Source: a virus (taxonomy: Duplodnaviria > Caudoviricetes). From it: a stretch of 64,000 bases of DNA. Position 1 is the first letter of the stretch. Each line of letters starts with the position of its first letter. Below the pieces are notes generated by a model. It worked only from the letters and a program-made list of their open reading frames with translations. It was not told the origin of the DNA and made no database searches. A program made the position numbers and the translations under genes. Of this stretch, positions 10,596 to 51,989 are shown piece by piece. The stretch lies in IMG/VR virus record IMGVR_UViG_3300037400_003293, positions 1,206 through 65,205 of that record. One strand, given 5' to 3'.

Positions 10596-10822
10596 TTTCC
10601 GGAGAAGGGACATTTTTACAATCCCTTCTCTTTTTTTTGTGCGTTCCACGATTTTTACAAGGGCGTTTATGAAGGGAAAGGAGGAATGCCTTGAGAGTAA
10701 TCCTGACCGAAAGAAGGGAGGCCGCATCGGCTTCTCTTTTTCTTTTCTAAGATAGAATTCTAATCTAAGATAGCTTTTTGATTCAAACTTTTCAGCCTCG
10801 TTAGTGAAAGGAGGTTGTTGAC

Positions 10823-12525: not shown

Positions 12526-12583
12526 CATGGCCCTTTTCTTTTTGAATTGTTTGTGGTACAATAACCGAAAGGAGGAGGATAAA

Positions 12584-14009: not shown

Positions 14010-14255
14010 ATGTCTGAATTGTTGGTTGGAATCTTGATCGGGCTTGGAGCGGGGGCTGTGGTTACCGCAATCACGGTGTCTCTGCTCATTGATAAATGGT
14101 ATGTGGGAAACCTCAATCTGGATGCCTCGATTCCGGAGGAGCCCTACTACTTTATGGAAGTGGGCCGGGGTATGACACATAAGCTCAGCAAAAACAAGCA
14201 TGTGCTGCTGAACGTCAGGAAGTCCAACTATGAAGACCGGAAGGAAACGAAATAA
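14010..14255 (+). CDS. Small N-terminal TM protein
   Basis: LLVGILIGLGAGAVVTAITV; RBS GGAAGGAG. Confidence 0.7.
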   Translation: MSELLVGILIGLGAGAVVTAITVSLLIDKWYVGNLNLDASIPEEPYYFMEVGRGMTHKLSKNKHVLLNVRKSNYEDRKETK

Positions 14256-14293
14256 TCAGGCCCTGTTGTGGAAGACCGCATTTCAGAAAGGAG

Positions 14294-14788
14294 ATGGAAC
14301 GTATGGATAACAGTATTGAGAGAATGCTTGCAGGTGAAATCGAAACGACCTTATCGGCACTCAAAACCATGAACGCCAATACGGAACAGGCAAAGGCGGA
14401 GCTGATGAAGCTGGCAAGGCTTCAGGAACTCAGAGCCAGGGAACTTGATGCAATCCTGAAGGAAAAGCAATTGGCTGAGACAAGTATGTCGAAAGTAGAC
14501 GAGATGTCTATCCGTAATGCTGAATTGGAGCAGAAGAGAAAGCAGGCGGAAGAAGAACTCGAGATGAAGAAGGCAGAACTGGCTCAAAAAGAAGCTGAAC
14601 TTAAGGAGGCAAAGAAAGGACGCTGGTGGAAGACGGTTCTGGATATTGTCAGCATCGGAGCACCGCTCGGTGTCGGGCTGTATGGGCTGAAGAAAGGATT
14701 TGAGTTCGAGGAGGAGGGAAAGATCTATTCCAGCAGGACTCCTCAATTCGTATCCGGATTCATGAGACTTTTCGGAAAGAAAGGTTGA
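14294..14788 (+). CDS. Coiled-coil protein with a hydrophobic C-terminal segment
   Basis: E/K-rich heptads, then VLDIVSIGAPLGVGLYG; RBS GAAAGGAG. Confidence 0.7.
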   Translation: MERMDNSIERMLAGEIETTLSALKTMNANTEQAKAELMKLARLQELRARELDAILKEKQLAETSMSKVDEMSIRNAELEQKRKQAEEELEMKKAELAQKEAELKEAKKGRWWKTVLDIVSIGAPLGVGLYGLKKGFEFEEEGKIYSSRTPQFVSGFMRLFGKKG

Positions 14789-14865
14789 GCAGAAAAGAGG
14801 CTCTGTGATATTTCACGGGGTCTCTTTCTCTTTTTGGACTTAGACAAAAATAAAGGAGGAACTTT

Positions 14866-15405
14866 ATGCGTACGACTACATTTCAGAAACAGGTAAGCAC
14901 CGGCGAGATCAGCTACATGCACGACCAAGGAATGTCAAATAAGGACATTGCCAAGAGGCTAGGGACGACTTGCGCCACCATCAATCAGTATTTTCCAGAG
15001 GAAAAACGCCGTTATACTAAGGTGACCGAATATGACGTGTACGAGATGGTGAAGCTTTTTGAACAGGGTGTTTCCGTCCAAAAGATAGCTACCAAATTCT
15101 ACTGCTCGAGCAGTACCGTGTATCGCATTCTGACTAATTACGGAATTACATTTGAGAGTAAGCGTGGCGGCCGTCCAAAGAAGAAAAAGGATGTAGGTCT
15201 TCCGGAAGCGCCAAAAGAAGCGGAACAAGCAAACGCAGGCAGGCTGGACCAGGAAAAGGTCGGCATATACCGTGGCCGAATCGGTAAATATGTCGTGGAT
15301 CGGGAAGACAAAACGGCGTCTATTCCGGAGATGATGGGCTGGATGAATAAGGAACAGCTCGGATATTTGATCCGAGATTTAATGATCGTGTGGCAGGAGT
15401 TGTAA
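14866..15405 (+). CDS. Tandem HTH DNA-binding protein
   Basis: GMSNKDIAKRLGTTCATINQY and GVSVQKIATKFYCSSSTVYRIL. Confidence 0.75.
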   Translation: MRTTTFQKQVSTGEISYMHDQGMSNKDIAKRLGTTCATINQYFPEEKRRYTKVTEYDVYEMVKLFEQGVSVQKIATKFYCSSSTVYRILTNYGITFESKRGGRPKKKKDVGLPEAPKEAEQANAGRLDQEKVGIYRGRIGKYVVDREDKTASIPEMMGWMNKEQLGYLIRDLMIVWQEL

Positions 15406-15408
15406 GCG

Positions 15409-15771
15409 ATGCGTTATCACTATGATCGGCCGAAGCATTACAGCAGCCATTACGGAGAGGAATATGTCTGCGATCATCCGGTATACAGTAAGTGTACTCT
15501 GTTCCGTGTGTGGGATCGAGGTCTGGCGGTCATCCAGCAGCGATACGATCCGGGGACAAAGAGAACCTATTGGGGCCCGATCGATCCTTGGCTGACAGAC
15601 CCAATCTACCTGAATCCGGCCTTCCTTGCCTATTTTAAAAAGAGGTCGGACGAGGCAGATGCAACCGGCTGTTATCCAACTGTAACAGTTCGGCAGATCA
15701 TGTGGGCGCTCAAGATGAAACCCATTCCAAAAGAGGTATGGGAGACCGTCTTTGATCGAGCGGAGATATGA
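15409..15771 (+). CDS. Conserved hypothetical phage protein
   Basis: 120-aa ORF coupled to the upstream gene. Confidence 0.65.
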   Translation: MRYHYDRPKHYSSHYGEEYVCDHPVYSKCTLFRVWDRGLAVIQQRYDPGTKRTYWGPIDPWLTDPIYLNPAFLAYFKKRSDEADATGCYPTVTVRQIMWALKMKPIPKEVWETVFDRAEI

Positions 15772-15813
15772 CACGAAATTTTCAAGCCTTCTTATGAAAG
15801 GAGGTTCGATAAT

Positions 15814-15954
15814 ATGGTTTCTATCGGACAATTAGTAGGTTTGTTAGGTTTCGCATTTATTTGTTGGATTTCCGGCTATATCTGTGGAGAAGGACATGCA
15901 TTGATTGACGAGGAGAAAAAGAAAGAAACGGCCTCTATTGCAGAGAAGGAGTGA
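15814..15954 (+). CDS. 46-aa membrane peptide (cassette 1)
   Basis: MVSIGQLVGLLGFAFICWISGYICGEGHALIDEEKKKETASIAEKE*; own motif, RBS and terminator. Confidence 0.7.
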   Translation: MVSIGQLVGLLGFAFICWISGYICGEGHALIDEEKKKETASIAEKE

Positions 15955-19282: not shown

Positions 19283-19634
19283 TCAAATTGCAATGATATT
19301 TGGTTACTTCATGCTTGTTATGATGGCCCTGTTCTGTCTGTATGTGCTGTATATCACCATCCGTGATCATTTTGCGGAAAAGAAGGCTACAAATAAGAAA
19401 TATCTCGAACATCTGAGGGAAGAAATTGACAATAATGAAAAACGTATCGGACATCTGATTTGCACGACAGCCGAACTTGACGAACGACTTACTCTCCTTG
19501 AGGAAAGCACGAAAAAAACAGAGTCTGCTATGGAAGAACCGAAAGGAGGTATCTGCCATGAAGAAGTTTCTGGGAAACCTGAAGGACCAGATCGTGAGCA
19601 AGTGCGAGAACGCGGACAAGACGAAGGTGCTTAA
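19275..19634 (+). CDS. TM + coiled-coil protein
   Basis: RBS AAGGAGG; IAMIFGYFMLVMMALFCLYVLYI. Confidence 0.65.
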   Translation: MLNQIAMIFGYFMLVMMALFCLYVLYITIRDHFAEKKATNKKYLEHLREEIDNNEKRIGHLICTTAELDERLTLLEESTKKTESAMEEPKGGICHEEVSGKPEGPDREQVRERGQDEGA

Positions 19635-35387: not shown

Positions 35388-35406
35388 GTGAAAGGAGCAT
35401 GAACAA

Positions 35407-35688
35407 ATGGCCAATAAGAAAAAGATCGGAGAACTGCCTAACAACGAAAAGCTTGGAGAACTGTTGCTGAAAGCTGCAGGTGATCGTTCTTTGAGACAGT
35501 ATGCGAGGGACGCAGGCGTGGCACCAGCAAGATTGTTTGAGATGAAACGTGTGAATGGCCCGAGGCCCACAATTATTTCTCTCCTTAAGCTTACGGAAGG
35601 AAAGGCTGCTCCACAGAATGGTGTAACGCTTTCTGATTTCCTGAGTGCTGCCGGATATGGAAACTGGACGGTGGTTCATCTGTCATGA
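35407..35688 (+). CDS. XRE/Cro-like HTH protein
   Basis: LGELLLKAAGDRSLRQYARDAGVAPARLFEMKR; RBS GTGAAAGGAG. Confidence 0.7.
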   Translation: MANKKKIGELPNNEKLGELLLKAAGDRSLRQYARDAGVAPARLFEMKRVNGPRPTIISLLKLTEGKAAPQNGVTLSDFLSAAGYGNWTVVHLS

Positions 35689-37916: not shown

Positions 37917-40889
37917 ATGGATAATTTACTGTTGGAAATGCTGTCTCTCTATTCTGGCGATCCTCTGGATCTGTACTTGATGAATGACGAGACACTGGAA
38001 CACGCTTATGAAGCGCAGGGCATCGGTGCCACAGGTGCTGGCGGAAGAACAAGAGAAGCCAGCTCTCAGGGTATTGGATCGGGAAGATACAGGAAAGGCA
38101 CCGGCGACAATCCTTATCAGCATGGATTCAGCAACTTCCTGGATCGTGTGGACTATTATAAACGCTCTGGTGTGACCAATCAGAAAGATTTGGCCAAGCT
38201 GTGTGGATGTGAAAATACGACTGATTTTCGTATTGCTTACTCTCAGGCTTTGCATGAGTGGAAGGTCAACCGTGCTGCCACTGCGCAGGCAATGCTGGAC
38301 AGCGGTAAGTACAAGACCAAGAAAGCAGTTGCTGAAGCGCTTGGCATTCGGGATACTACTCTCACTTCCTGGCTGAATCCCAAGTCTTTGGAGCGAGTCA
38401 ACCAGGCGCAGAATGTGGCGGATTTCCTGGAGAACCAGCTCAAAGAAAAGAAAATGATAGATGTTGGTGTCGGTGTAGAGAGGGAACTCAACTGCAGCCG
38501 CACCAAACTGGCTGAAGCCTTGGCCATCCTTGAGCAAAAAGGATACAACGTGTATGGCGGCCGTGTGCCGCAGGCAACGAATCCTGGAAAGAAGACAACG
38601 CTTAGCGTGCTGGCAGATACTGATCAGAAATGGAGTGATGTTTATAATCATCCCGAATTGATACAATCTGTGGCAGACTATATTGTCCGTCAAGATGGCG
38701 AAGGCAATGACGTTGTTCAGAAGAAATGGCAATATCCCGAGTCTTTGGATAGCTCCAGACTGATGATCCGTTATCGTGACGATAAAGCGTACGATGGCCA
38801 CACCGGTTGGGAGAAGGACGGAACCATTGAACTGCGCCGAAATGTGCCTGATTTGGATCTGCAAGGCAGCCACTATGCTCAGGTCCGCATCATGGTAGAT
38901 GGAAATAAGTACCTTAAAGGTATGGCGCTTTATTCTGACCATATGCCAGATGGTGTTGATGTGGTATTTAATACCAATAAGACACCCGGCGAAGATGTTC
39001 TAAAGAACATTAAGAAAGATCCCGATAATCCTTTTGGTGCATTGCTTCGCAATGAAGGCGGTCAGTATACTTATGAAGATAAAGATGGCAACACCAAGCT
39101 TGGGTTGATCAACAAGACCAGGCAGGAAGGCGACTGGGAAGATTGGAAGGATTCTCTTCCTTCTCAGTTTTTGGCCAAACAGCCTATTGCTCTCATTGAT
39201 AAACAGCTGAATAAGACGATTGAAGAGAAACAGGCTGAGTTCGATGAGATTATGGCGCTGACCAACCCGACAGTAAAGAAGTCGTTGTTGGCTGATTTTG
39301 CTGAAGCCTGTGATTACCAATCTGTTCATATGCAAGCAGCCGCTTTACCTAGGCAGAAGTATCAGGTATTATTGCCTGTTCCTACCTTGAATGATAATGA
39401 GGTTTATGCTCCTTATTACAAGAACGGCGAAACAATTGCTTGTATCCGATTCCCAAACCAAGGATTGTTTGAGATTGCCATTTGCAAGGTAAATAATAAC
39501 AATCCGCAGGGTGTGGAAATGATCGGCAATTCAATGGACGCTATCGGATTGAACAAAGCTAACGCAGATCGTCTGTCCGGTGCTGATAATGATGGCGATA
39601 CTGTTCTTTGCGTCCCCTGCAATGATCCCAAATACAGCGACACAAAGATTATGAACCAGCCGCTGTTGGAAGGATTGCGTGATTTTGATCCCAAAGTCCA
39701 GTACAGGTGTGATCACATTGAGACACGTACAGAGCGGGTTAAGAAAAAAGATAAATTTGGTAATGTCCTTAAAGACGAAGACGGAAATCCCGTTTATGAG
39801 GAAAAAGAAGTAGAGCATTATTTCCGAAACGGGAAAGAGTTCAAGCCAATGACTCGTACTCAGATGGAAATGGGGATCGTTAGCAATTTGATGATGGATG
39901 CTACGCTTCGTGGCGCGTCTGATGATGATAAAGCTGCGATTGCCCGCCATTGTCAGGTCGTTATCGACGCAGAAAAGCACCATCTGGACTGGCAGCAGAG
40001 TGCCATTGATAATCATATTAAGGAGCTCAAAAAGAAATACCAGGAACGGATTGATGATGAGGACGGATCTTATCATTATGGCGCTTCCACTTTGATAACG
40101 AGAGCCAAATCGCCTACACAGATTGTCAAACCTACAGGTGCTCCTCATATTGACCCTGAAACCGGCAAATTATATTACACAGATAAACAAAAGAAACCGC
40201 AAACTTATTATGATAAAAAGACTGGCAAGACCAAGGTCCGCATGGAAGATGTGGCACTGCTGGAGACAAAAGATAGCGCCTTTGATCTGGTGTCTGATAT
40301 GCACAATGCCAAGGAGCTGGCATATGCCAAGTTCTCTGATACGCTGCGTGATATGGCCAACCAAGCTCGAAAGGTTATTGCCAATACCGGAGACATCCAG
40401 TTTAATAAGCAGGCGGAAGCCAAATACCATGAAGAAGCGGAGCACTTATTGAGCGAATTGATGATTTCTGAAATGAATGCTCCACGTGAGCGTATGGCCC
40501 AGCTGTATGCCCGCGGTATAACCCTGGCCAAGCTGCGGGACAATCCCGATATGACCAAAAAAGAGCAGAGAAAGGCAAGTCAATCTGCCTTGGCGGAAGG
40601 AAGAGTTCGTTTTGGTGCACATCGACATAAAATCGATATTTCTCCAAGAGAATGGGAAGCGATTCAGGCCGGTGCGATCAATAAAACAAAACTGACCGCC
40701 ATCCTCAAATATGCAGACTCCGATAAAGTGCGCAATTATGCCACACCGAAGGCTTCTACCAATTTGACGCCTGGTCAGGTGAACCGTATTAAGAGTGCAT
40801 TGGCTAGCGGCGTTTCTCCTTCTTCTTTGGCCGAGCAATATCATGTGTCTGTGTCTGCTATTAACGCCTATAGAAAGAAGAAATCGTAA
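37917..40889 (+). CDS. Single-subunit two-barrel (DPBB) RNA polymerase-like protein with HTH domains
   Basis: Catalytic-like LSGADNDGDT preceded by RFP; HTH segments KTKKAVAEALGIRDTTLTSWL and GVSPSSLAEQYHVSVSAI. Confidence 0.7.
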   Translation: MDNLLLEMLSLYSGDPLDLYLMNDETLEHAYEAQGIGATGAGGRTREASSQGIGSGRYRKGTGDNPYQHGFSNFLDRVDYYKRSGVTNQKDLAKLCGCENTTDFRIAYSQALHEWKVNRAATAQAMLDSGKYKTKKAVAEALGIRDTTLTSWLNPKSLERVNQAQNVADFLENQLKEKKMIDVGVGVERELNCSRTKLAEALAILEQKGYNVYGGRVPQATNPGKKTTLSVLADTDQKWSDVYNHPELIQSVADYIVRQDGEGNDVVQKKWQYPESLDSSRLMIRYRDDKAYDGHTGWEKDGTIELRRNVPDLDLQGSHYAQVRIMVDGNKYLKGMALYSDHMPDGVDVVFNTNKTPGEDVLKNIKKDPDNPFGALLRNEGGQYTYEDKDGNTKLGLINKTRQEGDWEDWKDSLPSQFLAKQPIALIDKQLNKTIEEKQAEFDEIMALTNPTVKKSLLADFAEACDYQSVHMQAAALPRQKYQVLLPVPTLNDNEVYAPYYKNGETIACIRFPNQGLFEIAICKVNNNNPQGVEMIGNSMDAIGLNKANADRLSGADNDGDTVLCVPCNDPKYSDTKIMNQPLLEGLRDFDPKVQYRCDHIETRTERVKKKDKFGNVLKDEDGNPVYEEKEVEHYFRNGKEFKPMTRTQMEMGIVSNLMMDATLRGASDDDKAAIARHCQVVIDAEKHHLDWQQSAIDNHIKELKKKYQERIDDEDGSYHYGASTLITRAKSPTQIVKPTGAPHIDPETGKLYYTDKQKKPQTYYDKKTGKTKVRMEDVALLETKDSAFDLVSDMHNAKELAYAKFSDTLRDMANQARKVIANTGDIQFNKQAEAKYHEEAEHLLSELMISEMNAPRERMAQLYARGITLAKLRDNPDMTKKEQRKASQSALAEGRVRFGAHRHKIDISPREWEAIQAGAINKTKLTAILKYADSDKVRNYATPKASTNLTPGQVNRIKSALASGVSPSSLAEQYHVSVSAINAYRKKKS

Positions 40890-40905
40890 GAAAGGAGTGA
40901 TCTGA

Positions 40906-41160
40906 GTGTCTGGAGAATGCGCAATCACTACATTCGACAATCCTTACGATCCTTTTACTCAGTTTGATCACTGGTTTCTGTACGATTGCGAAAAAGGTTA
41001 TTATTCTTGCGGCTATTTGGCGAGAATTGCACGTTTAGCAAACGCAATGACAGAAGAAGAAAAGGATGCTGAAGTTGAACGAGCAATTGATGAGATTATT
41101 TCGTTCGATTTCATGGGAATTTACAAGAAAGTGTACAGAAAAGAGCCAGTTTCAGCATAA
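40906..41160 (+). CDS. Conserved hypothetical phage protein
   Basis: RBS GAAAGGAG; TTFDNPYDPFTQFDHW. Confidence 0.75.
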   Translation: MSGECAITTFDNPYDPFTQFDHWFLYDCEKGYYSCGYLARIARLANAMTEEEKDAEVERAIDEIISFDFMGIYKKVYRKEPVSA

Positions 41161-41283
41161 TTCTGCACCAAACAACAAAAGAAAGGCTAAAAATGAAGCA
41201 CATTTCGTTCAAATTTATGGGAAAAACATACAAACAATGCACAGAGAGGCGTGTAACTGCCCAAAACTGACATAAACCGCATA

Positions 41284-41360
41284 GGGAGGGGGTCCGAAAA
41301 AACACACCCCCTCCCCTTATCGCGGGGTTCTTCGATTTTCCTCCGGGGGACATTTTTGGA
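41284..41360. other. Putative cos / packaging region
   Basis: Perfect 10-bp IR GGGAGGGGGT/ACCCCCTCCC plus G/C runs in the intergenic gap just before the terS-like/HNH/terL genes. The location is inferred. Confidence 0.45.
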
Positions 41361-41393
41361 TAGTGAATTCTGGAATCGGTCGATTTGCAACAT

Positions 41394-41534
41394 TTGAATG
41401 AGTCTATGGGATGGCGGACGTGTTTCATGGGTCACCTCCTTTCGGTCATGATACTTTCAGTGTTCTTTTTGGTTGTGCAGCTTTTTCCAACCATGCTCCT
41501 TTCACCACTGAAACCCTCTCATAGACTCATTCAA
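41394..41534. ncRNA. Structured element closed by a 15-bp IR, with two anti-SD loops
   Basis: TTGAATGAGTCTATG/CATAGACTCATTCAA; inner stems TCATG/CATGA, TTTCAGTG/CACTGAAA and GGTTG/CAACC. Confidence 0.55.
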
Positions 41535-41599
41535 GTGCTGCAAAGCATGTAAAAACTCAATAGAACAGGAGATGAAGTACCATCAAAAGCACGGATAGT

Positions 41600-41923
41600 A
41601 TGGAGTCTCCTCGGGCTCCGAGACGATTGAGGCCTGGTTTGTCCCCTGAGGCCGATGAAAATCAGCTGATTTCCCTCTCCATCGACGCTGCAAAGAAGAT
41701 GTTGGTCGAGGGAACTGCTCCAACGTCTATTGTTCTGCATTACTTGAAGCTCGCTACCACCAGGGAACGGATGGAACGCGAAATGATGGCCACGCAGAAG
41801 GAACTAATGGAAGCCAAGAAGCAGGCGCTCGAATCTCAGGCCAAAGTGGAACAGCTATACGCCGATGCCATGAAGGCCATGCAGCGTTACAGCGGTTATG
41901 GTGATACGGATGAGCCGCACTGA
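41600..41923 (+). CDS. Conserved protein at the start of the packaging module (possible terminase small subunit)
   Basis: PEADENQLISL...GTAPTSIVLHYLKLATTRE; position before HNH/TerL. Confidence 0.6.
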   Translation: MESPRAPRRLRPGLSPEADENQLISLSIDAAKKMLVEGTAPTSIVLHYLKLATTRERMEREMMATQKELMEAKKQALESQAKVEQLYADAMKAMQRYSGYGDTDEPH

Positions 41924-42335
41924 TCTTCGAACATACACGGAGCTTTCCAAACTCAAGACGTTTGCTGAGCGGTTTGAATACCTGAAGCTGAATGGTGAAG
42001 TTGGTAAAGATACTTTCGGATACGACCGGTACCTGAACCAGCGTTTTTACCATTCTCCCGAATGGCGTCGGATTCGAGATCAGATTATTGTGCGAGACAA
42101 TGGCTGTGATCTTGGTGTAGAAGGTTATACCATCTATGACAAGATCTACATCCACCATATGAATCCGATCACCGTTATGGATATTTACACCACTTCCGGT
42201 CTGCTTACCATGCCGGAGTTTCTTATATGTGTGTCATATGAAACACATAATGCCATTCACTATGGAGATGCATCAAAGCTCAGGAGTGATCCGGTAGAAC
42301 GGCGTCCGAACGACACCTGCCCCTGGAAATTATAG
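41898..42335 (+). CDS. HNH endonuclease
   Basis: WRRIRDQIIVRDNGCDLG...IHHMNP...THNAIH. Confidence 0.85.
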   Translation: MVIRMSRTDLRTYTELSKLKTFAERFEYLKLNGEVGKDTFGYDRYLNQRFYHSPEWRRIRDQIIVRDNGCDLGVEGYTIYDKIYIHHMNPITVMDIYTTSGLLTMPEFLICVSYETHNAIHYGDASKLRSDPVERRPNDTCPWKL

Positions 42336-42339
42336 GAGG

Positions 42340-42711
42340 TTGCTTATGGAAGACAGCATTTTACGGTCTGTCAGAAAGGTCTGTGGACCGGGTGCGGAAA
42401 GTGGCGATTTCGACACTGACCTCATCATACATATTAACTCCGTGCTGTCTATCCTTCAGCAACTAGGCGTAGGCCCGGAGAATGGATACTATGTCGATAG
42501 TGACGCTCAGACATGGGACGACTATTTGGGCGAAAATTCCTTTCACCTCAATATGGTGAAGTCCTATTTATGTGCAAAGGTTCGGTTGCTCTTCGATCCC
42601 CCAGTTTCTTCGGCGGTGTTGAACAGCCTTGAACATTTGTGTTCTGAGTTCGAATGGCGGTCTAACGTAGCCGCCGAAAATAAAGCATTAGAGGAGGCGA
42701 AGAGTTCATGA
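42340..42711 (+). CDS. Head-tail connector-like protein
   Basis: SIL.SVRK...FDTDLIIHINS...L.QLGVGP...KVRLLFDPP (recall of phage connector families). Confidence 0.6.
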   Translation: MLMEDSILRSVRKVCGPGAESGDFDTDLIIHINSVLSILQQLGVGPENGYYVDSDAQTWDDYLGENSFHLNMVKSYLCAKVRLLFDPPVSSAVLNSLEHLCSEFEWRSNVAAENKALEEAKSS

Positions 42712-43664
42712 ATGTTGTTCTTACCACTGTTGATCATGATTCTTCGCTGATGCATCACGGTGTAAAAGGCATGAAGCGAGGTGTCCGCCTATACCAGTAC
42801 GAGGACGGAACTTATACGCCACTCGGCCGGATTCATTACGGAATTGGTAAAGGCCGTGAAAAAGGCGAACCTGAAAAATCCGATCGCCAGAAAGAAAAAG
42901 AGCTAAAGGCCAATATTTCCGATAAGATTAAACAATTTAGTGAGAATCGTAAGGCAAAAGCTGAAGCTCGTACCAAGGAAAAAGAAGCCGAACAGAAGCA
43001 ACGTGAGGATGCTCGAAAAGAAATTCGGAATCTGTCTGATCAGGAACTAAACACAAGACTTGCCAGGTTACAAAAGGAAAAGCAGTATTCCGAACTCCTG
43101 AACGAACGAGAGAACCGTGAAAAAGGTCCTGTTCGTGCCGCAGTTAGTAAACTCCTTAAAGAAGCTGCTGAAAACCTGGCAAGAAAGACACTAAATGAAG
43201 TCGTCGATCAAGTCATTCGTAGAGGCAAGAGCAAGATTCAGGAAAAAACAGCTATCAAACTCGGTGATTATAAAGACGTAGATCCTTATAGTCTTAGTCC
43301 TGATAAACTGAAGGCCGTCTCCGATGCATTTAATACAGCAGCAAATCTTATGCGCAACAAATATGCTGTCGAACACGAGGGCAGGAATCCAAACGACAAT
43401 AACAACCAAAATCAAAATAATCAGCAAAAGCAGAAAAACCAAAACGACAACCCACAGCCAAAACAACAAAACAACGACAAGCCTGCTTCAGATAATAAGT
43501 CAAAGAAACAAGACAAGAAACAAGACAAGAAAGAAAAACAGAAGAATAAGCAGCAGGATCGAGTGGAAGCCATGGCAAGGTCCGGAAAGACTTTCGAAGA
43601 GATCGCTAAATCTCTCCACATTTCCGAATCCATGGTCTACAAATATTTGGAAGACCTGGTGTGA
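42708..43664 (+). CDS. HHGxKGMK-motif protein 1
   Basis: LMHHGVKGMKRGVRLYQYEDGTYT; charged and Q/N/K low-complexity body; C-terminal HTH-like GKTFEEIAKSLHISESMVYKYL. Confidence 0.75.
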   Translation: MNVVLTTVDHDSSLMHHGVKGMKRGVRLYQYEDGTYTPLGRIHYGIGKGREKGEPEKSDRQKEKELKANISDKIKQFSENRKAKAEARTKEKEAEQKQREDARKEIRNLSDQELNTRLARLQKEKQYSELLNERENREKGPVRAAVSKLLKEAAENLARKTLNEVVDQVIRRGKSKIQEKTAIKLGDYKDVDPYSLSPDKLKAVSDAFNTAANLMRNKYAVEHEGRNPNDNNNQNQNNQQKQKNQNDNPQPKQQNNDKPASDNKSKKQDKKQDKKEKQKNKQQDRVEAMARSGKTFEEIAKSLHISESMVYKYLEDLV

Positions 43665-51873: not shown

Positions 51874-51989
51874 TCTGGGCAGCGAAATCCCATTCTCCAC
51901 TGAGCGATTGACGCCGATGGGATGACAGATACGGCCGGAACGAAAAGAGATAACGGCCGTGATCTTTTTAAGTGAAAGGAGCATTCAAA

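Follow-up and report, generated by a model that had tools for sequence, protein, structure and literature searches.

Nearly all genes in the window analyzed here (the whole 64,000-nucleotide (nt) stretch, bases 1206–65205 of the 65,205-bp IMG/VR virus record IMGVR_UViG_3300037400_003293) are on the + strand, and the runs that hold this sequence are bovine gut metagenomes. Ahead of the DNA-packaging genes lies a 440-bp gap (41161–41599), in which a long inverted repeat encloses pyrimidine-rich words complementary to ribosome-binding sites (RBSs) of the phage itself. The question raised by this locus is what kind of feature the repeat represents. It may be an RNA that acts on other transcripts of the phage, a leader that acts only on its own transcript, a site bound by a protein, a decoy that mimics ribosomal RNA, a DNA signal for packaging, or the control region of small genes on the opposite strand. 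The reading preferred here is that of an anti-RBS RNA that shuts off the translation of early and middle genes, and we would give it an even chance of being correct.

A structured RNA at the head of the late genes

The element spans 41384–41544 on the + strand, as indicated by its inverted repeat, its fold, a covariance model, and two alignments (A2 and A6), and consists of a long closing helix (P1) and an interior with anti-RBS motifs. The first-pass annotation of this DNA had put the closing inverted repeat at 15 bp. The repeat is indeed present, but its arms are 31 nt long (41384–41414 pairing with 41514–41544), 87% complementary, and separated by 99 nt. A 151-nt stretch at this location has a folding energy of -50.9 kcal/mol (z = -5.0 relative to dinucleotide shuffles), and the covariance model finds the element as the sole copy in the window (65.5 bits, E = 1e-11). 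In the interior, an inner helix (41455–41462 with 41506–41513) is predicted around a small hairpin (41471–41475 with 41488–41492). This region (41455–41513) varies across the family and, in the window, holds the second of two motifs, CATGCTCCTTTCAC (41492–41505), in a single-stranded state, while the first motif, TCACCTCCTTTCGGT, is located at 41432–41446. The ensemble probabilities of being unpaired are 0.72 for motif 1 and 0.94 for motif 2, as expected from the initial claim that both are exposed. A natural variant in the 3′ arm, A41525G, is found in three runs; read on the + strand, a U-A pair becomes U·G.

Two flanking proteins were used to gather about 160 loci, among which two covariance models then located the element in most, and the resulting family set comprises 92 non-redundant copies. 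More than 500 relatives of the neighboring gene are present in IMG/VR. The members come from gut and rumen phages, Faecalibacterium phage FP_oengus, Lactococcus phage P118, and Arthrobacter and Curtobacterium phages. Covariance-model matches are always 5′ of the gene that belongs to phrog_4259, the first gene of the packaging and structural operon, and the best score is always on the + strand. In an alignment of 34 sequences, the closing helix has 27 pairs, and compensatory changes affect both sides in 26 of them. The fraction of paired cells in this helix is 95%, compared with 76% in shuffled alignments and 32–49% when the partner strand is slid, and none of 500 shuffles reached the observed helix support. 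The covariation score shows the same order (0.74 observed, 0.34 shuffled, and 0.13–0.19 slid). On these comparative grounds, the element is a real structured RNA.

The strand of this RNA can also be read from the alignment. The closing helix contains 102 G·U cells and only 16 A·C cells, an excess that points to the + strand as the RNA strand, and the fold of the + strand is the more stable one in 36 of 42 copies (mean difference 11.8 kcal/mol). Together with the covariation, this bears out the earlier proposal of a structured + strand RNA at the head of the late region. In three relatives from one clade, a gene for tRNA-Leu(CAG) is inserted on the + strand 45 nt 3′ of the element, between it and the first late gene (L018, 2178–2264; L011, 2172–2258; L027, 2175–2262), such that the leader in these phages would yield at least one other processed stable RNA. 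This tRNA gene and the location of nearly all genes of the window on the + strand agree with the + strand as that of the RNA.

Across the family, element length ranges from 110 to 190 nt, and every member has 27–36 predicted pairs in the closing helix, which is longer than the minimum of about 20 bp for an RNase III hairpin. The smallest members are simple hairpins of 33–36 bp with a pyrimidine-rich apical loop. The sequence CUCCUU(UC) of loop 2 is present in 88 of the 92 copies and is preceded by a U-rich run; its core CTCCTT is invariant in the corresponding columns of alignment A6, lies about 20–30 nt 5′ of the 3′ arm, and has a mean unpaired probability of 0.73. In total, the elements contain 141 CTCC words and 21 GGAG words. 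Loop 1 is a feature of a sub-clade only: the window, L005, L006, L018, and L027 have it, as do others, while many members lack it. Thus, the description of the element as one that displays two anti-Shine-Dalgarno loops is accurate for the window but is not a rule of the family, in which loop 2 alone is universal. The element of FP_oengus has four such motifs. By eye, the combination of hairpin and motif was seen in five of the seven cultured relatives that were folded. For the most distant members, the scores of covariance model R2 are borderline (E = 0.065 for P118 and E = 0.23 for the Arthrobacter phage Kardesai), and the membership of the Lactococcus and actinobacterial phages is based on position, the long helix, and the motif. 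No convincing copy of the element was found in Streptomyces phage Namo or Gordonia phage Petito.

These family data also bear on the alternative already raised at the outset, namely that the motifs are Shine-Dalgarno (SD) sequences of small genes on the minus strand. A perfect SD followed by an ATG at 6–7 nt does exist on that strand in the window, L005, and L006, and the minus strand of the P118 element copies an RBS, its spacer, and a GTG. However, the open reading frames (ORFs) that begin there encode 105 amino acids (aa) in the window (from the ATG at 41428), about 50 aa in L005, and 9 aa in L006, with no conserved peptide among them. A start codon 4–12 nt after the SD is found in 34 of 88 copies, which is about the level of chance. 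Moreover, the helix favors the + strand, and the ORF of the window shares its sequence in part with the end of a conserved + strand gene and matches no protein family (Pfam). The SD and ATG exist as described, whereas the gene that they would serve is not conserved, and this explanation is scarcely credible.

Complementarity of the motif to ribosome-binding sites

Within the 64 kb of the window, the word CTCCTTTC occurs 23 times against an expectation of 2.95. Among these copies, 21 are on the minus strand and correspond to GAAAGGAG RBSs of + strand genes, and the only two on the + strand are both inside the element. Because of this confinement, the motif was also rejected as a recurrent promoter for the phage polymerase. 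For loop 1, the complement of TCACCTCCTTTC (41432–41443), namely ACCGAAAGGAGG, was found at 12564–12575 and 19538–19549, in line with the first-pass annotation. Extended by one T, the latter site becomes a candidate target of 13 nt in an RBS of the early region (19538–19550, + strand), with the former as a second site of 12 nt. For loop 2, a perfect 14-nt complement, GTGAAAGGAGCATG, is located at 35388–35401 on the + strand, where it forms the RBS of a 93-aa gene (35407–35688; the XRE-like regulator of the first-pass annotation), a candidate target, and is also a weak reverse-strand hit of the covariance model. The other site proposed for loop 2, at 51972–51985, is a copy of this sequence with one mismatch. 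When flanks are randomized around a fixed 8-mer core, matches of at least 13 nt arise in 8.7% of trials and those of at least 14 nt in 3.1%, such that the 13–14-nt matches within the window are only marginally above chance. Because these matches are no more than modestly unusual given the core, the window alone would not carry the interpretation, and the stronger support comes from the relatives.

The genes that carry matching RBSs are not evenly distributed. In the window, 18 of the 21 GAAAGGAG sites are in the early/middle region at 10.6–41.2 kb. By a simple gene call, AAAGGAG is present in 20 of 41 early/middle RBSs compared with 2 of 23 late ones (Fisher p = 0.001). The late genes of the window instead have GGAGG without an A-rich flank, and GAAAGGAG is nearly absent among them. 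Site lists from complete relatives give 28 early/middle versus 2 late sites (G002) and 26 versus 1 (G005). Early-type RBSs read CUCUUGAAAGGAG, GUCUUAAGGAGGA, or GUGAAAGGAGCAUG, while the late type is GGAGG. The concentration of the matching RBS type in early and middle genes fits early-gene shut-off, which was one of the options first suggested for this element.

More informative is the comparison among lineages, in which the motif differs along with the RBSs. In Kardesai, Zeina, and Synepsis (Arthrobacter) and Eevee (Curtobacterium), long hairpins with 29–34 outer pairs contain CTCCTTTCAAGAG, and the motif is conserved over up to 13–15 nt. The actinophage sequence CUCCUUUCAAGAG is the exact complement of a 13-mer RBS that is used one to four times per genome. 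On the coding strand, this 13-nt complement (CTCTTGAAAGGAG) has 4, 1, 2, and 3 copies in Kardesai, Zeina, Synepsis, and Eevee, respectively, against about 0.001 expected, and each copy is an RBS located 5–9 nt before a start codon in the non-structural region at 24–48 kb. In P118, the element contains CTCCTTAA twice, and the genome has eight TTAAGGAG sites versus three GAAAGGAG sites, whereas other genomes show the reverse preference. The P118 motif variant CUCCUUAA matches the preferred UUAAGGAG sites, and one P118 RBS matches over 13 nt (GTCTTAAGGAGGA), with the likeness extending through the spacer. Among five gut-phage genomes, the pairing of each element with its own genome is the best of the 120 possible assignments when the four bases that flank the core are compared. 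Overall, the lineage-specific seed variants …UUUCAAGAG, CUCCUUAA, …UUUCAAAA, and …UUUCGGUG match the RBS flanks of their own genomes. These comparisons of sequence support a joint change of motif and RBS consensus in three distant lineages, and they extend the initial observation that the exposed pyrimidine motif complements RBSs of the phage itself.

The same variants help to distinguish a phage RBS from the 3′ end of 16S ribosomal RNA (rRNA) as the relevant partner. The element has a long stalk with CCUCCUUUC just before the 3′ strand, and it could be a mimic of the 16S 3′ end or its precursor that serves as a decoy for Era, a maturation nuclease, or a MazF-type or other defense toxin. The overall architecture presumably resembles the pre-16S stalk, the motif is conserved across phyla, and in both the window (UCACCUCCUUUC) and L006 (AUCACCUCCUUUC), loop 1 is identical to the 16S 3′ end. 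However, the universal motif is UCUCCUUUC rather than CCUCC, and both CUCCUUAA of P118 and …CAAGAG of the actinophages depart from 16S and follow RBS flanks. We therefore attach very little weight to such mimicry. Because the lineage variants differ from the 16S 3′ end, the partner would be the phage RBS and not a factor that binds 16S. In addition, the way in which CUCCUUAA and …UUUCAAGAG track the phage RBS flanks argues against a generic effect on host translation.

A further explanation is that of a purely cis-acting leader, in which the helix is an RNase III site or stabilizer that parts the polymerase messenger RNA (mRNA) from the late mRNA and the motif masks the SD of the phrog_4259 gene, similar to the lambda N leader or the T7 R0.3 site. 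A helix of 27–36 bp is a textbook RNase III substrate. The element is always 20–75 nt 5′ of the RBS of this same gene, strongly conserved as GAGAGGAGGCAGUAA, and pairing of the motif with that RBS could reach about 9 bp, including two G·U pairs. The lack of a promoter or terminator of its own in 40800–41800 is also as expected for a leader. Yet the RBS of this first late gene is of the late GGAGG type, and its contiguous Watson-Crick match to the motif is 5 nt, which weakens a model based purely on SD masking in cis. In the clade of the window, the first gene is almost without an SD, and two motif copies are nevertheless present. In the actinophages, the RBSs of this gene (ACGGAGGUGAC and TTAAGGAGGTGAAC) mismatch the extension UUUCAAGAG, in contrast to RBSs of other genes, which match over the full 13 nt. 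Finally, the tRNA gene of the three relatives mentioned above intervenes between the element and the first gene. A role restricted to cis is thus unlikely in our view, though far from negligible.

Genome ends, operon structure, and neighboring genes

The gap that holds the element also holds the genome ends. DNA contigs of run X1, the probable source run, stop at 41320 (right end) and start at 41330 (left end), one contig of run X23 starts at 41330, and dozens of IMG/VR contigs begin or end at the homologous spot. The missing 9 nt (CGCGGGGTT, 41321–41329) fit a 3′ cohesive end (cos), as in cultured relatives whose records open with the same box. On the right, the end is preceded by a G+C-rich hairpin, GGGAGGGGGT / ACCCCCTCCC (41284–41315), that is kept in relatives. 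On the left, the box CTTCGATTTTCCTCCGGGGGACATTTTT (41330–41359) opens many contigs and the records of cultured relatives. This left-end box (TTTTCCTCCGGGGGA…) is common to Lactococcus, Arthrobacter, Gordonia, and Streptomyces phages and is probably a terminase recognition site.

The element starts 55 nt from the left genome end, while the polymerase gene is at the right end. In circular or concatemeric form, the order is the polymerase gene, an 84-aa gene, cos, the element, and the late genes; these share a single strand, and no terminator is predicted among them. By analogy with lambda, late transcription may cross cos. The proximity of the element to the left end, which is similar in many relatives (40–60 nt from the contig start), is compatible with a packaging feature at the DNA level, i.e., cosB-like terminase-binding repeats framed by an inverted repeat. 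The motif also forms direct repeats (repeat D4), with four copies in FP_oengus. On the other hand, the asymmetry between G·U and A·C cells in the closing helix would be unexpected for double-stranded DNA, and loops of 60–100 nt make cruciform extrusion unlikely. Moreover, in Kardesai, Synepsis, and Eevee, the distance between the element and the genome end is 0.5–1.9 kb (1.9 kb in Eevee), and the element is still directly 5′ of the phrog_4259 and HNH genes. This retention of its place before phrog_4259 despite the distance from the end ties the element to the operon and not to cos, and a cosB-like function is very improbable.

In the region 40800–41800, no terminator-like site was found, and the only sigma-70-like site is a weak one inside the upstream gene. 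A promoter-like motif that occurs 16-fold in this phage has no copy upstream of the element. Without a promoter or terminator of its own, the element looks like a part of the late-operon leader and not like an independent gene for a small RNA (sRNA), and on this point the first-pass annotation is not supported. The promoter-like motif itself, cACG-AAATTTACA-N8-TATGRA, has 15–16 sites at 10651–36977, often directly before AGGAG, and none in the late region. It resembles CGCG-TAAATTACAC-N4-TATAATGAG, which precedes several early genes of the actinophages Kardesai, Zeina, Synepsis, and Eevee (L178–L188). A promoter common to phages of two phyla, if the resemblance is meaningful, would fit recognition by their own YonO-like polymerase. 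The 5′ arm of the element (41384–41414, …TCG-ATTTGCAACA-N12-TATGGGA) is loosely similar to the promoter-like motif, with a spacer of 12 nt and not 8 nt, and the complement of the 3′ arm reads …GAGTCTATGAGA. This resemblance may be due to chance or may be a relic of the origin of the arms. The 5′ arm was rejected as a promoter because it has no match to the motif at two or fewer mismatches and because the actinophage arms lack the likeness.

Upstream of the gap, the last large gene before cos (37917–40889, + strand) encodes a candidate single-subunit RNA polymerase of 990 aa, YonO-like or similar to RNA-dependent RNA polymerases, with a DNDGD motif and a match to phrog_4291 (“RNA-dependent RNA polymerase”, E = 4e-281). 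Homologues of this polymerase are at the right end of about 250 phage records, and the window protein is only distantly related to YonO. The polymerase is the signature gene of a supercluster that unites actinobacteriophages with Lactococcus and Faecalibacterium phages, in a study that does not mention the RNA element (Koert et al., bioRxiv 10.1101/842583). Between the polymerase gene and the gap is the conserved 84-aa gene (phrog_4303). The packaging block 3′ of the gap includes the 107-aa phrog_4259 gene and genes for an HNH endonuclease, a connector protein, and the large terminase. After the connector gene, a 318-aa protein (42708–43664) has a C-terminal helix-turn-helix (HTH) that weakly resembles the HTH families of small terminases and resolvases, and this protein may be the small terminase.

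The phrog_4259 gene (41600–41923, + strand; PHROG match E = 2e-32) encodes a protein that is modeled as two long helices with an acidic tail and a K/R-rich N-terminus, and Pfam, PDB sequence, and Foldseek searches of this protein gave no match. Its start codon may be misplaced. Protein conservation extends 5′ of the annotated ATG (window 41567–41602), and this ATG is replaced by ACG in L005 (2466–2500) and L006 (258–296). The aligned start is ATC in the window (41582), ATA in L005, and GTG in L006, each 10 nt past an AGGAG. The alignment suggests near-cognate AUC/AUA initiation of phrog_4259 in the clade of the window. An upstream ORF of eight codons (41572–41598) stops 1 nt short of the annotated ATG.

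The basic N-terminus of this protein, which precedes its long helices, enters into yet another explanation, in which the element is a late-leader RNA bound by a protein and its anti-SD likeness is incidental. The RNA could be a nut- or put-like antitermination site acting over the late operon of roughly 25 kb, for the host or the YonO-like polymerase, or it could be a site for the phrog_4259 N-terminus. The element heads a very long operon, and the motif is kept over up to 13–15 nt in actinophages. Furthermore, the YonO-dependent late operon of SPbeta likewise opens with an unannotated non-coding RNA (Forrest et al., 2017, PMC5467207). The two cases are alike in that a non-coding RNA is found between a YonO-type polymerase gene and late or packaging genes, and a YonO start site has been placed in the SPbeta yonN–yonK gap (Forrest et al., 2017). 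However, this gap of 1.7 kb has no homologous hairpin, with a best model hit at E = 0.15 and only scattered CTCCTT words, such that the SPbeta parallel remains an analogy and not homology. The minus-strand region concerned (NC_001884.1 (L173), 14153–15833) has no annotated gene, several strongly folded stretches, and two CTCCTT words 100–150 nt before yonK. Protein binding also leaves unexplained the parallel change of the motif and the RBS consensus of each phage and the avoidance of the matching RBS type by late genes, and the phrog_4259 model matches no solved RNA-binding fold. We consider this explanation improbable.

A possible switch from early to late translation

Under the preferred reading as an anti-RBS RNA, the element would be transcribed on the + strand within the leader of the late operon, which contains the packaging and structural genes. 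The closing helix of 27–36 bp would clamp its ends, providing a nuclease-resistant scaffold and a probable site for RNase III, whose cleavage would release the RNA from the long transcript. The interior would then present one or more single-stranded anti-RBS copies with the core CUCCUUUC, the complement of the standardized early/middle RBS. With the onset of late transcription, the RNA would pair with early and middle RBSs, block 30S binding, and thereby lower the synthesis of early and middle proteins. The late genes are proposed to be spared, since their short GGAGG RBSs lack the matching A-rich flank.

Several points weigh against this reading, in addition to the marginal length of the matches within the window. 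The sole signal from an RNA library is weak, consisting of one 154-nt contig (41439–41592) at a depth of 2.9 from a size-fractionated library, and this contig may be derived from DNA. All runs that were found exist as contigs, from which strand, ends, and level are not readable. If the RNA has neither a promoter nor a terminator to itself, each late transcript would supply a single copy, which may not suffice to titrate dozens of RBSs. The targets are equally complementary to the anti-SD of 16S rRNA, so the RNA would have to compete with ribosomes. The split between RBS types could stem from separate ancestry of two genome modules and not from selection, and the excess of G·U cells could be inflated by C-to-T bias (deamination) on the non-template strand. 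The permutation test of motif flanks is based on a small sample of five genomes. Finally, Namo has the polymerase and no long hairpin before the first gene, which indicates that the element is not indispensable to this group of phages.

A search of 40800–42000 with Rfam cmscan at E up to 10 gave no family at its gathering threshold, including C4 (RF01695), phage pRNA (RF00044), and 6S RNA; the best hit is a plant microRNA model with 21.8 bits against a threshold of 135. Several known systems nevertheless share parts of the proposed mechanism. The c4 RNA of P1 and P7, reportedly described by Citron and Schuster in 1990, is said to be a structured phage RNA that is cut from a longer transcript and has loops that pair with the RBS region of the phage’s own genes, and the sar RNA of P22 reportedly provides a similar case. 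However, c4 and the element have no match in sequence or structure in the cmscan. Moreover, c4 functions in immunity and acts on a single target that follows directly within its own operon, whereas the element matches the standardized RBS of many early and middle genes, heads the late operon, and is closed by the 27–36-bp helix. RNase III and RNase E release the sRNA DicF of the Qin prophage from a polycistronic phage transcript, and DicF blocks translation through pairing at an RBS. In contrast to the element, DicF targets host genes (such as ftsZ) via a specific seed and lacks a long closing helix, and the two are not homologous.

Pyrimidine-rich loops that pair with the SD of several mRNAs are also known from the hairpins of Staphylococcus aureus RNAIII, from RsaE, and from RoxS of Bacillus subtilis. 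These Firmicutes RNAs are encoded by the hosts and have their own promoters and terminators and UCCC or CCCC seeds. The element differs in being encoded by phages and embedded in a leader, in having a CUCCUUUC seed that is extended to the flanks of the phage RBSs, and in its absence from Rfam. In terms of logic, a counterpart is the RegB nuclease of T4, which inactivates early mRNAs at GGAG SD sites and spares late ones (PMC3014915). RegB is a protein made early, whereas the element would be an RNA made with the late transcript, and the likeness is an analogy of logic and not homology.

Extended to the supercluster as a whole, the preferred reading describes an RNA-only temporal switch in phages that infect hosts of two phyla (gut and rumen Clostridia, Faecalibacterium, Lactococcus, Arthrobacter, and Curtobacterium). 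The late leader would be released as a stable hairpin with a loop antisense to a private early/middle RBS, late onset would silence early translation, the late RBS type would have evolved to escape, and the loop and its RBS tag would co-evolve. To this wider claim we give somewhat less than an even chance. For annotation, the apparently empty 440-bp gap contains a 9-nt cos site and an RNA gene, and the minus-strand ORF should not be called. Several members of the family are cultured and have tractable hosts (Lactococcus lactis, Arthrobacter, and Faecalibacterium), which makes the switch directly testable. If correct, the element would represent an unrecognized and widespread class of phage regulatory RNA, and it would provide timing of gene expression without a protein, through a private RBS code shared by a whole class of genes. 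It would also account for the visibly different SD contexts of early and late genes and add a component to the biology of phages that have YonO-like polymerases, a field so far unexplored.

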